This document shows, in pieces, positions 1-7,596 of a stretch of DNA of 64,000 nt; position 1 is the first letter of the stretch, and every line of letters starts with the position of its first letter. A program made the position numbers and the translations under genes. Origin of the DNA: Escherichia coli (lineage in GTDB: Bacteria; Pseudomonadota; Gammaproteobacteria; Enterobacterales; Enterobacteriaceae). The notes under the pieces are model-generated. The model did not search any database, had not been told where the DNA came from, and saw only the letters and a program-made list of their open reading frames with translations. The stretch is from NCBI RefSeq assembly GCF_013122565.1, contig NZ_CP053258.1; one strand, 5' to 3'.

Positions 1-199
1 GCAGCAATTGATTAATCAGGTCAACGAATACATAAACAGTAAGCAATGGCCTGGTAAAGCGGCGATTGGTCGCCTGAAAGGTGAGGAACTGGCGCAATAT
101 AATTTGTGGCTGGATTATCTGGACACACTGGAACTGGTCGATACTTCCGGTGCGCCAGATATTGAATGGCCTACGCCTCCGGCAGTTCAGGCCAGATGA
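1..199 (+). CDS. Tail fiber assembly protein, alternate copy, C-terminal fragment (5' end truncated by window edge; frame starts at position 2)
   Basis: Translation ...LAQYNLWLDYLDTLELVDTSGAPDIEWPTPPAVQAR matches conserved Tfa C-terminus; converges on and overlaps the minus-strand tfa at 171-764. Confidence 0.55.
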   Translation, partial: QQLINQVNEYINSKQWPGKAAIGRLKGEELAQYNLWLDYLDTLELVDTSGAPDIEWPTPPAVQAR

Positions 200-764: not shown

Positions 765-2278
765 TATGCAGCCCTCACAATATAATTAAAGGCGATGTTA
801 CGTGGACGGTTTTCATTAGCTGTTGGCACGACACGAGAGGCGTCGAATCCAAGGTCATCGGTTTTGCCTATAGCAGTTGTGTTATTCGCCATTGTCGCTG
901 ATCGTGTTCCTGCATCGTAAAAAGCCCCTCTGATTGCATCAAAAGACATGCCGATCCCGCCATCTGCGAATCCCTCAATATTTCTTATTGCATCCCCCTG
1001 TGAAGATAATAATTGTCGCCCGGCATCCACTCCACGTCCGTCATCCCAGCCACGAATAAATTCACCGCGTAAATCAGGCAATTTATTTGTCGGATAAACC
1101 TTTGCCAGTTCCGGGTATTCTTCAGCAGAAAAAGCCGCACCATTGCATTTTAGCCAGCCTGTTGGCGGAGTGGCGGAAGGCCACGGGACAGGCACACCAA
1201 CGGGTAATGCCGAACCTTCTCCCAAACCAAGGTATGCGAGAAGACCAGCCACATCCTTTCCACTCAAATTGGTAAGCGTATTGTCCAGCGGTTGTTTACC
1301 TGCCAGCGCATTAAGCATTGTCGTGGCAAAGTTCGGATCATTCCCCAGTGCCGCCGCCAGTTCGTTCAGTGTATCCAGTGCCGCGGGTGCAGAACCCACC
1401 ATTGCTGCAATCGCTGATTTCACAAAAGCCGTAGTGGCAATCTGTGTATTGTTGACCGACTGCGCCGCCGTGGGGGCTGTTGGCGTTCCGGTGAGTGCCG
1501 GACTCGATAGCGGCGCTTTCAGTGCCAGCGCATTGTTAATGGTGGTACTGAATTTCGGATCATTGTTAATGGCTACAGCTATTTCTTTCAGCGTGTCCAG
1601 CGTGGCTGGCGCACCATTAATAAGAGCCGTCAGTGCCGCCTGAACAAACTCGGTGGTCGCAACCTGCGTGGTGTTATTCCCCGCCGCTGGCGTTGGCGCT
1701 TTGGGTGTCCCGGTAAACGTAGGACTTTCTTTCTGTGCATACTGTGAATGCGGGTCCGGTGCGGCAAGATGTTTTGCCATCTGATCATCTGCGTACACCT
1801 TCAGCTCCAGTACCTTATCATCCACATACTTGCGGGTTGCCAGCACTACGGCAGGGTCGATTTTCAGGGTGATATTGTCCGTGCTGCTGGTAATCAACAC
1901 CATACGCACGGTCTGGGTACGCCCGCTGCCTTCAGCCAGTTGCGGCTTATAACTTTCCGGGCAGTTGCCCACGGCAATCAATGCCCCGGACTCATCAAAC
2001 AGGCCCACTTCACGTATCCACCAACCGCCCTCGTTTTCAGGGATCACCTGTTCAGCAATAATCTGGCTGCTGTTCTGCGGGTCGATATAGAGCATATTCA
2101 GCGCAGCCCGGCGTTTCTCATTTACCAATGCTGTCTGCTTTGCGTCCGGCGTTGGCAATGTTCCACCGCCATCGCCGACCGCCATATGGGTAATTTTTAA
2201 AGGCACACCGAGCGCGGCGGCGCTGGCAAGGTTCGCCGCGCCAATATCCGTCAGCAGGGTATAAAATTTTGTGCTCAT
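764..2278 (-). CDS. Tail fiber protein (P2 gpH-like N-terminus, Mu S/P1 S-like C-terminal receptor-binding part)
   Basis: 504 aa; N-terminal MSTKFYTLL...MAVGDGGG and repeat block ...LNELAAALGNDPNFATTMLNALAGKQP typical of P2 H; ATGA overlap with upstream gpI. Confidence 0.9.
   Translation of the reverse strand: MSTKFYTLLTDIGAANLASAAALGVPLKITHMAVGDGGGTLPTPDAKQTALVNEKRRAALNMLYIDPQNSSQIIAEQVIPENEGGWWIREVGLFDESGALIAVGNCPESYKPQLAEGSGRTQTVRMVLITSSTDNITLKIDPAVVLATRKYVDDKVLELKVYADDQMAKHLAAPDPHSQYAQKESPTFTGTPKAPTPAAGNNTTQVATTEFVQAALTALINGAPATLDTLKEIAVAINNDPKFSTTINNALALKAPLSSPALTGTPTAPTAAQSVNNTQIATTAFVKSAIAAMVGSAPAALDTLNELAAALGNDPNFATTMLNALAGKQPLDNTLTNLSGKDVAGLLAYLGLGEGSALPVGVPVPWPSATPPTGWLKCNGAAFSAEEYPELAKVYPTNKLPDLRGEFIRGWDDGRGVDAGRQLLSSQGDAIRNIEGFADGGIGMSFDAIRGAFYDAGTRSATMANNTTAIGKTDDLGFDASRVVPTANENRPRNIAFNYIVRAA
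1217..1242. other. Candidate Din-family invertase crossover site (cix/gix/hix-like) inside tail fiber gene
   Basis: TTCTCCCAAACCAAGGTATGCGAGAA; left half matches the recalled consensus TTCTCnnAAACC with central AA, right half degenerate; lies at the constant/variable boundary of H. Confidence 0.3.
1289..1723. repeat. Internal tandem duplication (two units of about 216 bp, about 72 aa each) inside the tail fiber gene
   Basis: Protein units PTFTGTPKAPTPAAGNNTTQVATTEFVQAALTALINGAPATLDTLKEIAVAINNDPKFSTTINNALALKAPL and PALTGTPTAPTAAQSVNNTQIATTAFVKSAIAAMVGSAPAALDTLNELAAALGNDPNFATTMLNALAGKQPL; coordinates approximate. Confidence 0.7.
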
Positions 2279-4127: not shown

Positions 4128-4702
4128 ACCGGGCCTCCGGTTGTATCGCCGCCTTTCAGGACGCCAGTATGCTGATGCGCATCAACCACGATCCCGTTAG
4201 AACTCATCGCTCCGCCGCCCTGGGTAACGCCACCATTGATCACAACTTCGCTGTTAATGCGCGTGCGGTCAGCCTCCAGTACAAACTCACTGGTTTTCAG
4301 GGTGATATTGTCAGCGGCCTCAATGACCATGGATTTGATGCCCCTGACATACCAGCGCCCGGTGGCGGGTTCGTATTCAAACCAGCCACCGTCTGGGTAC
4401 TCAACCACGTTGCCGTCCTCAGAGTCTGAAGGTGGTGGAAACTGATTTGAGTAGACAGCAGGCAGGGCAAACGCGGTTTCCAGATTGCCACCCAGGCTGA
4501 ACAGCACAACCTGCTCGCCCACAGACGGTTTCCACCAGGTGCGCGATTTGCCCGCGCGCAGTGTCAGCCAGTTAATCCAGTTGGTTTCGAGGTCGCCCGT
4601 TTTCACCCGACACAGCCAGTTTTCCCGGTCCACTTCGGTGACTACACCTGTGCGAATCAGATTGGTGATAAGGCGCATGATTTCGGTTAGTTGTGCATTC
4701 AT
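4124..4702 (-). CDS. Baseplate spike/assembly protein (P2 gpV-like)
   Basis: 192 aa; MNAQLTEIMRLITNLIRTGVV... aligns with P2 V N-terminus. Confidence 0.85.
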   Translation of the reverse strand: MNAQLTEIMRLITNLIRTGVVTEVDRENWLCRVKTGDLETNWINWLTLRAGKSRTWWKPSVGEQVVLFSLGGNLETAFALPAVYSNQFPPPSDSEDGNVVEYPDGGWFEYEPATGRWYVRGIKSMVIEAADNITLKTSEFVLEADRTRINSEVVINGGVTQGGGAMSSNGIVVDAHQHTGVLKGGDTTGGPV

Positions 4703-4750
4703 GTCGACGATATTTGCACAAACATATATTGTGGGACATTGAGTCAGAAA

Positions 4751-4768
4751 TGTATGACTTACTACACA
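4751..4768. promoter_or_regulatory. TGT-N12-ACA dyad (P2-type late promoter activator element) upstream of V
   Basis: tgtatgacttactacaca; P2 late promoters carry a TGT-N12-ACA dyad bound by Ogr-type activators. Confidence 0.3.
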
Positions 4769-4795
4769 ATGTTTATCCGCGCAAAGGAGTTACAG

Positions 4796-5701
4796 ATGAC
4801 ACAAATCGGTATCTATGGATATTGCTTCACGAAAGAATTTACTTTTAAAGGAGGGACACTGATACCTCGTTACAAATCCTTTAAGGAACTAAAAGAGAAT
4901 AAATGCGATGGAAGCGAATATGTATTAAGTGGATTTTTCTCTCCCGCACATGCTTCTGAAAACACCGTCACTCAAATAATTTATGATCTTTCAGCTGTTT
5001 TAAGTTTCATTGAACAAAAAAATGTAATCATATCAAACTTCCTAGAGGAACATGAAACACCTGAAAAGTTAGATAATAATTTCCCACTAAAATTGAAGTC
5101 AAAAAGAAAGTCATCACTAGGAATAATTGTTGAAGATTACTTCTCTGAAAAGAGTCGCTCAGCGTTCATTGAGCTTGCGATGGATAAACTTCATAGAAAT
5201 ATTAATTCTCATCAAAACCCTTTTAGAACTGCGTTCTATAAGTCTATATTTTCTTTTAGGGAAAGAATGGACTATGTAGATGTTAAATACTTCCTTAATT
5301 TCTCAGCATTAGAATCCCTGTGCAGATATATCGATAACGAGTCGACATCTAGTTATACACCACAAATAATTACAAAGGTTTTAAAAGATTATGGTTTTAA
5401 TGTATCTAAAGAAGGCAACCCTGTACCACAAAGAAACGTGATTCACTATTGCACGCTTCGAAACTCTCTATTCCACAATGGAAATTATATTGGATACATT
5501 AAGAAAGATGATCCAAGCAGTATCATTAAATTAAGTGATTATTATTCAAATCTAAATTTACTTTTACCTTTAGTATTAATGAAATATATAGGATTCGATG
5601 ATGGATTAATTAACTGGGACTCATGGATAGACTATGAACCATTTCTCGCCCTCAGGCCTAAAAACTTAACTCCATCGAATGGTAAACAATCAATTAGATA
5701 G
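4796..5701 (+). CDS. AT-rich cargo gene: hypothetical protein with Rx4H motif (HEPN-like, abortive-infection-like candidate)
   Basis: About 301 aa from MTQIGIYGYCF with AGGAG RBS upstream; low GC relative to flanks; antisense to the S-V tail operon; motif RNSLFH. Confidence 0.7.
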   Translation: MTQIGIYGYCFTKEFTFKGGTLIPRYKSFKELKENKCDGSEYVLSGFFSPAHASENTVTQIIYDLSAVLSFIEQKNVIISNFLEEHETPEKLDNNFPLKLKSKRKSSLGIIVEDYFSEKSRSAFIELAMDKLHRNINSHQNPFRTAFYKSIFSFRERMDYVDVKYFLNFSALESLCRYIDNESTSSYTPQIITKVLKDYGFNVSKEGNPVPQRNVIHYCTLRNSLFHNGNYIGYIKKDDPSSIIKLSDYYSNLNLLLPLVLMKYIGFDDGLINWDSWIDYEPFLALRPKNLTPSNGKQSIR

Positions 5702-6136
5702 CCAGCGCAATAATACATCGTGGGTTAAGGATTCTACGTCATCATTAATACCTAACAAACGACGCTCTGCGTAACGGACCTCCGGTCCTTTGCGACTAAC
5801 GCGATCACGCAGGCCGTAATGGTGAACACGGGCAATACGCTGCACCTTGCCTTCAAACTGTACGCTGGCAGAGTCGGCGCTGGCGGCAGTTTTCAGGTAT
5901 TTTGTGGTGCGCAGCTTTGCAAACATCTGACGTTTGATGCGCCCCTTCTTGCTACGTGCTGTTACCCTGCGCGGTTCATAACTGCTGCCATCTGGATTGC
6001 GCTGCATCCTGATATTCTGCTGCTGTGTCCGGCGCAGTTCCTGCGCCAGCTGGCGCATCATGCGGCTTCTCGTGGCTGGTTCCAGATTCGCCAGCAAGGC
6101 ACTCAGCCAGTCGTCCACCTTCTGCAGTTCAGCCAC
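5690..6136 (-). CDS. Tail completion protein (P2 gpS-like)
   Basis: 148 aa; synteny R-S-V. Confidence 0.85.
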   Translation of the reverse strand: MAELQKVDDWLSALLANLEPATRSRMMRQLAQELRRTQQQNIRMQRNPDGSSYEPRRVTARSKKGRIKRQMFAKLRTTKYLKTAASADSASVQFEGKVQRIARVHHYGLRDRVSRKGPEVRYAERRLLGINDDVESLTHDVLLRWLSN

Positions 6137-6581
6137 GTTTCACCGTCCACATTTCTTCAGGTGCATCAGGTTCCGCTACAGCTTCAACGCTCGACACACT
6201 GCCGTCAGTGCTGACCAGCACACGCTCCGTCAGTTGCAGGTTCAGGCTGATATCACAGACATCGTTGCGCAGAATATCCACCTCAAAGGTGAATAGCTTT
6301 TCCCGTAACGCCAGGTTATTGATAGCATCGGGCTGGTTATCCCTCAGCCACAGCAAAACCGGGGCCATCAGCAGATTCTGGTCGCCGCTGAAATCCTCAA
6401 TCACCACGTTCAGGGTGTAACGGTACTCCCATGACATGGAGCTGGCCCCCGTGGCAACCAGCGAACCGTTATCCACAAACAGATGCAGTTTGTCCGGGTT
6501 ATTGCGGACATAAGGCACCGCTTTATTGAGGGCGTGGCGCAGGGATTGTGGTTTGTTCACTGTTTCGCTCCTGACACGCAA
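6129..6581 (-). CDS. Tail completion protein (P2 gpR-like)
   Basis: 150 aa; synteny. Confidence 0.85.
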   Translation of the reverse strand: MRVRSETVNKPQSLRHALNKAVPYVRNNPDKLHLFVDNGSLVATGASSMSWEYRYTLNVVIEDFSGDQNLLMAPVLLWLRDNQPDAINNLALREKLFTFEVDILRNDVCDISLNLQLTERVLVSTDGSVSSVEAVAEPDAPEEMWTVKRG

Positions 6582-6813
6582 TAATCATGTCCACTTTGTC
6601 TGCACAGACCGCCCAGGCGGCCTCCGTTTCATCCAGCAACGCGTTCAGATTACCGTTAGTGCGCGGCGTTGCCTGATCCAGCCGACACGGCGTCACTCGC
6701 GGACAACCACTGACGGTAAGCTGCACCTCCGGTGAGTGTCGGACGTTCCCGCAGCCGGATAATGTCAGCAGGCAAAGGAGTATCAGCCCAGCGGCGTAAA
6801 TCCTCGTTCTCAC
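6523..6813 (-). CDS. Outer-membrane spanin lipoprotein (P2 LysC / Rz1-like), overlapping lysB and R out of frame
   Basis: 96 aa; lipobox LTLSGC in MRTRIYAAGLILLCLLTLSGCG; Pro-rich. Confidence 0.7.
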   Translation of the reverse strand: MRTRIYAAGLILLCLLTLSGCGNVRHSPEVQLTVSGCPRVTPCRLDQATPRTNGNLNALLDETEAAWAVCADKVDMIIACQERNSEQTTIPAPRPQ

Positions 6814-7084
6814 GTTTCAGTTCCTCAATCCGATGTTGTCGTTGTCTCAGCAGTGCACTGGTCTGTTCTGCTTCGGCGTAGAGCCGCGCCTGCTCCCGGT
6901 TGTTGGTTTCAGCCAGAATGGACAGACTGATCAGCTGGCTATTTTTCTTCGTTAGTTCGTGCGCTTTACTTTTCAGCGCCGCGCGCTGCGTTTCGATGGT
7001 ATGGCTGGCGCTGTTAAGCCGCCACGACTGCCAGCCCAGCGCAACGAGTGCCAGCGCCGCCACTACCGCCAGCGCACGTGTCAT
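6656..7084 (-). CDS. Inner-membrane spanin (P2 LysB / Rz-like)
   Basis: 142 aa; N-terminal TM segment then coiled-coil rich in R/E/Q. Confidence 0.8.
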   Translation of the reverse strand: MTRALAVVAALALVALGWQSWRLNSASHTIETQRAALKSKAHELTKKNSQLISLSILAETNNREQARLYAEAEQTSALLRQRQHRIEELKRENEDLRRWADTPLPADIIRLRERPTLTGGAAYRQWLSASDAVSAGSGNAAH

Positions 7085-7596
7085 AGTCCAGCTCCTTTAA
7101 GGCACCAGGCCATCTCCCGCGCACGGCGGTTATCCAGCCCCTGATTAAACACACCTTTTACATACACCCAGCGCGGCAACTGTCGGCACGCATCCGCCCA
7201 GCGCCGCTGATTGAGCAATTTCACCAGCGTGGAACTACAGGCATTGCCCGTCCCCACGTTGAAGGCAAACGACACCGTAGCGTCATACACCTTCTGCGGT
7301 GGCTGTTGCTTCACACACCTTTCCAGCGCCCGCTCCACACGCAGCACGTTGGAGATCAGCCCTTCTGCTGCCTGTCGCTCCGTGATTGTTTTGCCGGGAA
7401 TGACGCCCGATGTATTACCAATGCCGTCGGTCCAGACACCCGCGCTGCACTGATACGGCTGCAGACGACAGCCTTCGTAATCGGCGATCAGTTTCAGTCC
7501 CTCCACGGAGGTGTGAAGCTGCTGAAAACCCGGCAGCGTGGCAGCAATAGCCAGCACAGCCCCGACAAGGCAGCGTTTAACGATTGATGGATTCAT
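7081..7596 (-). CDS. SAR-type endolysin (T4-lysozyme/GH24-like, resembles phage 21 R)
   Basis: 171 aa; N-terminal hydrophobic CLVGAVLAIAATL then EGLKLIADYEGCRL...WTDGIGNT catalytic region. Confidence 0.85.
   Translation of the reverse strand: MNPSIVKRCLVGAVLAIAATLPGFQQLHTSVEGLKLIADYEGCRLQPYQCSAGVWTDGIGNTSGVIPGKTITERQAAEGLISNVLRVERALERCVKQQPPQKVYDATVSFAFNVGTGNACSSTLVKLLNQRRWADACRQLPRWVYVKGVFNQGLDNRRAREMAWCLKGAGL

Follow-up and report, generated by a model that had tools for sequence, protein, structure and literature searches.

Repeated motifs common to the tail fibres of phages P2, lambda, Mu, P1 and the T-even phages have been known since the early 1990s, while invertible fibre genes of the serine-invertase type occur in the G segment of Mu (S/U), the C segment of P1 and the P segment of e14. 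Recognition of repeated, shared fibre motifs from that time onwards is likewise cited in PMC8986868. Among the described fibres, P2 gpH (NP_046775) offers the closest comparison for the gene considered here. It carries a PF12571 N-terminal domain, two PF03406 'Phage_fiber_2' repeats, a single unit of 74 aa (aa 255-328) and a Gp34_trimer-like tip, and is encoded in the neighbourhood V-W-J-I-H-tfa. The 74-aa unit is not discussed in the P2 pseudotyping paper, and the stretch of annotation examined beyond H and G in the P2 record lists no invertase gene. Parts of the unit are also found in fibres of solved structure. The stem of the cyanophage A4 fibre joins the head-binding to the cell-binding domains (PMC12002296), and both the A4 (PMC12002296) and the phiTE papers place the segment matched here within the stem of a trimeric fibre. 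Repeats are ordinary in the fibre genes of phages, and the one described here, in a very common prophage protein, is of an already known kind.

The window, which is the whole stretch of 64,000 nucleotides of Escherichia coli contig NZ_CP053258.1 (RefSeq assembly GCF_013122565.1) that was analysed, encodes a tail fibre of 504 aa, that of a P2-like prophage, close to its first letter (Table 1). This protein matches phrog_327 'tail protein' (E = 1.8e-215), and a Pfam search returned a full-length N-terminal PF12571 match (E = 1.4e-64), the domain type found in P2 gpH, and a Collar match (E = 3.9e-14), with no match in the repeat region between them (aa 184-331). The N-terminal domain is likely to form the baseplate-attachment part of the fibre. 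Towards the C-terminus, two solved structures are matched by residues 356-502, namely the short tail fibre of phiTE (9cuy_c; E = 6e-32) and the tip of T4 gp37 (2xgf; E = 9e-14). The gene order is of the P2 type, with gpV, gpW, gpJ and gpI followed by the fibre gene, in the position of the P2 tail module, and then by a tail-fibre assembly gene, as established from the open reading frames of the window, the Pfam labels of a syntenic locus (L001) and the RefSeq annotation of a second genome (L004). In the list of best matches, dozens of database entries, annotated as 'phage tail protein' in E. coli, Salmonella and Klebsiella, share ~98% identity with the 504-aa fibre, and close matches are also present in P2-like prophages and phages. 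An open reading frame of 336 aa (4691-5701, plus strand), situated on the opposite strand and flanked by the tail genes gpV and gpS, has 30-34% G+C against about 55-58% in its surroundings and looks like an inserted accessory gene. It gave no significant Pfam match and no PADLOC match. For another E. coli relative, the features listed somewhere beneath the same 8-kb match include a 'SIR2 family protein'.

Table 1. Features of the tail-fibre locus, in coordinates of the window
Feature	Position	Strand	Basis and remarks
Second tail-fibre assembly gene, 3' end, cut by window edge	8..199	+	PF02413, E = 3.3e-15, profile positions 76-130
Tail-fibre assembly (chaperone) gene, 197 aa	171..764	-	PF02413 Caudo_TAP, E = 2.4e-27
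Tail-fibre gene (P2 gpH-like), 504 aa	764..2278	-	ORF, Pfam and phrog_327
Collar domain, aa 361-408	1055..1198	-	PF07484; opens the variable receptor-binding part, aa ~355-504
Putative DNA-invertase crossover site, codons 346-354	1217..1242	.	TTCTCCCAAACCAAGGTATGCGAGAA; inverted partner in L004; boundary of constant and variable parts
Repeat unit 2, aa 258-331, terminal-type, ending ALAGKQPL	1286..1507	-	Self-alignment; 59/74 (80%) identical to P2 gpH unit
Repeat unit 1, aa 184-257, internal-type, ending ALALKAPL	1508..1729	-	Self-alignment; 53% identical to single P2 unit
N-terminal tail-collar fibre domain, aa 1-150	1829..2278	-	PF12571; 58% identity to P2 gpH residues 1-151

The translation and the positions of the TGTP motif show the two repeat units to be adjacent and head to tail, with a period of 74 aa (222 nt). 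They align without gaps, with 43/74 residues identical and 53/74 positive (BLASTP E = 8e-28 with compositional adjustment), and their Smith-Waterman score of 221 compares with 34.8 +/- 6.4 (maximum 68; z = 29) for 2000 shuffles. On the strength of these shuffle statistics and of the composition-adjusted E-value, a low-complexity origin of the similarity was rejected. The original prediction of a tandem duplicated module within the tail-fibre gene is thereby borne out, and the protein motif quoted for it is correct in both units. The span that had been given (1289-1723) lies just inside the true limits (1286-1729), while the period of about 72 aa requires correction to 74 aa. The further description of the repeat as collagen-like does not hold, with glycine not recurring at each third position, no G-X-Y triplets and a predicted model made up of an extended segment and three short helices. 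Each unit is full-length and combines an N-half with an in-phase C-half ending in K(A/Q)PL, at the 74-aa spacing. The ending of unit 1 is the one most often seen in other fibres in units that precede another unit, and that of unit 2 is the commonest among array-terminal units (10/111). The PF03406 family ('Phage tail fibre repeat') likewise comprises a short tandem shaft repeat, at the equivalent position in P2 gpH, but is a separate sequence family: neither unit, nor the whole protein, matched it at E <= 10, while the P2 gpH control did so at E = 3.4e-38. The window gene thus resembles P2 gpH in its N-terminal domain, its neighbourhood and its 74-aa unit, but lacks the two PF03406 repeats that precede the single unit of P2. 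It also differs at its C-terminus, with a Collar/gp37-like tip in place of the Gp34_trimer-like one and BLASTP likeness that stops at aa 332.

An absence of repetition at the DNA level had been named beforehand as an observation that would speak against a duplication. Seed-based tools come close to that outcome, as neither Tandem Repeats Finder nor a seed-based repeat finder reported a DNA repeat in the fibre gene, yet the in-register DNA identity of the units (134/222, 60%) is significant when set against codon-shuffled controls (31 +/- 3%, maximum 41%). The matches are distributed over the first, second and third codon positions as 50, 59 and 25 of 74, respectively, and the longest exact run common to both units is 12 nt. 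With only 25/74 third codon positions matching, synonymous sites are essentially randomised, and it follows from this saturation that the unit pair is an ancient tandem duplication in which likeness has been kept at the protein level. Mean identity between units of a single protein is 72%, and between units of different proteins 61%; at 58%, the pair in the window is unusually diverged. A recent or unstable duplication is rejected by the same saturation. The third-position identity, the shortness of the exact runs and the blank results of both repeat finders thus make it scarcely credible that the repeat serves as a contingency locus whose copy number changes frequently within populations.

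The distribution of copy number argues in the same direction. A hidden Markov model built from units 1 and 2 and applied to the 120 closest homologues detected exactly two copies in 118 of them, a constancy that runs counter to a contingency locus and because of which copy-number change is taken to be rare. The repeat region is matched in ~1,050 of 5,426 complete E. coli genomes, and the best listed places (30/30) all span 444 nt, that is, two units. As all listed E. coli places are two units long, length variation may be selectively irrelevant within this lineage. What does favour frequent change is the existence of a three-unit allele in E. coli, represented by a close homologue (P0074) of 578 aa (504 + 74). 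The DNA of its middle unit is of the unit-2 type over approximately the first 85 nt and of the unit-1 type thereafter, with the switch located in the ATTAFV codons. The chimeric middle unit is the footprint of unequal crossing-over, being the product expected where unit 2 of one copy is misaligned with unit 1 of another. The P0074 cluster contains 14 sequence variants on >120 contigs, some of them above 5 Mb, by which an assembly artefact is ruled out. Since all of these variants carry one identical chimeric unit, the allele points to a single old event and not to the recurrent change that a contingency locus would entail. When the three-unit region and the chimeric unit were used as queries against the 5,426 complete E. 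coli genomes, the matches listed consisted of two-piece (two-unit) matches only.

Among relatives at a greater distance, copy number does vary, as had been anticipated in the original prediction. One unit is present in P2 gpH, two in the window gene and three in the P0074 allele, while fibres that share the N-terminal domain and have their first unit at aa 184 contain two, three or four, and other fibres up to 11. The accompanying description of the repeat as recombination-prone consequently holds on evolutionary time scales only, and not in the sense of an unstable locus, for which the DNA identity is too low, the shared runs are too short and the listed E. coli places are too uniform. At E <= 1e-3 the unit profile matches 40,511 representatives of clusters formed at 50% identity, of which 1,629 match at E <= 1e-30. 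The best 150 of the 40,511 contain 0 (N-half-only arrays), 1, 2, 3, 4, 5, 6, 9 or 11 full units each, most commonly with starts spaced by exactly 74 aa. The N-half-only arrays repeat at 36-39 aa, and the existence of arrays at this spacing indicates that the two halves are separable and constitute independent repeat modules. A tblastn search with unit 2 against 50,697 phage records found 722 that match, including P2, lambda-like Stf, Escherichia phage D6 (in its long tail fibre), BcepMu gp52 and a Clostridium phage. Hundreds of actinobacteriophages are also among them, with matches that cover the C-half only. The unit is shared by fibres whose tips are unrelated to one another (P2 gpH, lambda Stf, the D6 long tail fibre and BcepMu gp52), and the two-unit segment matches 32 PHROG tail-fibre families, all of which are whole-protein families.

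So wide a distribution could also be expected if the units acted chiefly as conserved 'linkers', at which homologous recombination between unrelated phages could swap tips and shafts, with any structural role being secondary. The greater identity of unit 2 to the P2 unit (80%) than of the N-terminal domains to one another (58%), the spread of the unit over 32 PHROG families and over phages that infect Proteobacteria, Actinobacteria and Clostridia, and the use of the conserved ATTAFV stretch in the crossover of the three-unit allele are all consistent with this role. However, where comparison with the nearest phages shows mosaic breakpoints, these are located at gene nt 1062, 1149 and 1238-1242, at or beyond the invertase site and outside the units. 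Moreover, at 72% DNA identity, with 32/74 third positions matching, unit 2 and its P2 counterpart are too far apart for efficient homologous exchange, and the conservation is seen at the protein level, as a constraint on the fold predicts. A primary function as recombination linkers is therefore considered unlikely.

The make-up of the unit provides a basis for a structural interpretation. The N-half (unit positions ~2-31; SPxLTGxPxAPT...NxTQIATTAFV) is predicted to be extended, and the C-half (positions ~29-72; APxxLDTLxELAxALGNDPNFxTT) to comprise three helices. Profile searches of solved chains matched the N-half to the phiTE long fibre (9cuy_g; E = 9e-7) and to A4 gp24 (9k09; E = 3e-9), in the latter of which it occurs twice in tandem without the C-half, and matched the C-half to the Bxb1 gp4 collar fibre (9d93; E = 9e-17) and to FibU gp68 of staphylococcal phage 80alpha (6v8i; E = 3e-7); the whole 74-aa unit is absent from every solved structure matched. 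In an AF2 model of one unit (94-sequence alignment; mean pLDDT 78.7), the N-half is extended and non-helical, with block means of 87-91, and is followed by three short helices. Foldseek superposed the modelled N-half on 9cuy_g and 9k09 with an rmsd of 1.1-1.2 A over 33-39 columns and a probability of 0.95-0.96, although, for so short a match, the E-values (0.55-0.68) are weak. A pseudo-trimer model, in which three two-unit copies were joined by 25-Gly linkers (18-sequence alignment), reached a pLDDT of 28 and was unusable. The phiTE and A4 fibres thus share the N-half by sequence and local structure, and Bxb1 gp4 and 80alpha FibU share the C-half by sequence. All four differ from the window fibre in having neither the full composite unit nor a tandem array of it, and in their unrelated terminal domains.

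We consider it probable, with good though not overwhelming confidence, that in the trimeric shaft of a P2-like fibre the two units form successive modules, which arose by an ancient duplication, act as a spacer between the attachment domain and the tip, and have a fold that is under purifying selection. Of this, the repeat, its age, its distribution and range of copy numbers, the chimeric unit and the place in the constant region are shown, whereas the trimeric fold and packing, the spacer role and any length added per unit are inferred. The most probable fold of the N-half is a short interdigitated beta-helical segment, and that of the C-half, with its three short helices (FVxxAIxALV / APxxLDTLxELAxAL / DPNFxTTxxNALA), a small helical bundle. 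Units stacked head to tail would connect the baseplate-binding N-terminal domain with an exchangeable receptor-binding tip, and the number of units would set the distance between tip and baseplate. In this reading the pair, born of the ancient tandem duplication, is retained by purifying selection on the fold, and its copy number changes only rarely, through unequal crossing-over at ATTAFV, the stretch that is conserved best, which yields shafts of one, two, three and four units.

The position of the repeat relative to a putative crossover site is in keeping with a shaft. The site (TTCTCCCAAACCAAGGTATGCGAGAA) is unique in the window and lies 14 residues after unit 2. Its inverted partner falls beyond the window edge here and is seen in L004, the closest complete genome (99% identical), where it lies 1.9 kb away and is 81% complementary over 27 nt. 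In that genome the partner site adjoins a gene, outside the window here, for a 188-aa protein with Resolvase and HTH_7 domains (PF00239, E = 2e-53; PF02796, E = 1e-15). L004 further holds the full second assembly gene and a promoterless alternative fibre C-terminus (136 aa, Gp53-like_C), within the region 4727-7277 of that locus. Where the fibre gene resembles one group of several Klebsiella phages, the likeness breaks off exactly at gene nt 1062, which is the end of the crossover site. This layout suggests that the fibre gene belongs to a switch of the Mu G or P1 C type, operated by a serine invertase. The parts of the Mu, P1 and e14 switches, namely the constant 5' part of the fibre, a crossover site within the coding sequence, two convergent cassettes of tip and chaperone, and an adjacent small serine invertase, are all seen in L004 and half of them in the window, the comparison being one of layout. 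The window differs from those switches in being cut inside the segment, without the invertase and the second site. It starts inside the putative invertible segment, and the gene at its very edge would belong to the alternative cassette. The two convergent assembly genes overlap at their 3' ends by 29 nt (171-199).

As the repeat lies upstream of the crossover site, it belongs to the constant shaft common to both alternative tips. This bears on a further explanation, namely that the units are carbohydrate- or receptor-binding modules, the duplication of which raises avidity for the host surface. Several binding sites are frequent in tail fibres, although no finding here is specific to binding. 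Against such a function, the units lie in the part common to both alternative tips and are conserved in fibres of phages with very different hosts, their relatives in solved structures are stem segments, and the recognisable receptor-binding part of the fibre is its Collar/gp37-like C-terminus. A binding function is accordingly regarded as very improbable.

No Pfam-A or NCBIfam model covers the unit when the single units and the two-unit segment are searched, and for so common a module this represents a database gap. It is possible, though less probable than not, that the unit constitutes an uncatalogued and extremely widespread shaft module (at least 40,000 clusters), consisting of two halves that travel separately and with a copy number that acts as a natural length ruler. 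If this were the case, the definition of the unit could provide precise and naturally tolerated splice points for fibre-length engineering and tip swaps. The unit boundaries, the internal and terminal types and the natural series of one to four units mark where the length of the shaft is changeable while the attachment domain and the tip are left untouched. The value of the repeat as a discovery is small, and its practical value lies in annotation and engineering.

Some individual proteins have unusual arrays. A protein of 768 aa from Salmonella Typhi (P0001) has four units through an internal duplication of 264 aa, the sequence running as far as 'NNTT' in the tip and then resuming from 'NNTT' within unit 1. 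This is either illegitimate recombination at micro-homology or, possibly, an assembly artefact, and the protein, a single-member sequence, was set aside. Eleven full units are present in a protein of 6556 aa (P0121) and nine in one of 1039 aa (P0122), while three others (P0124, P0128 and P0134) have up to 23 matched stretches, which consist mostly of the N-half only.
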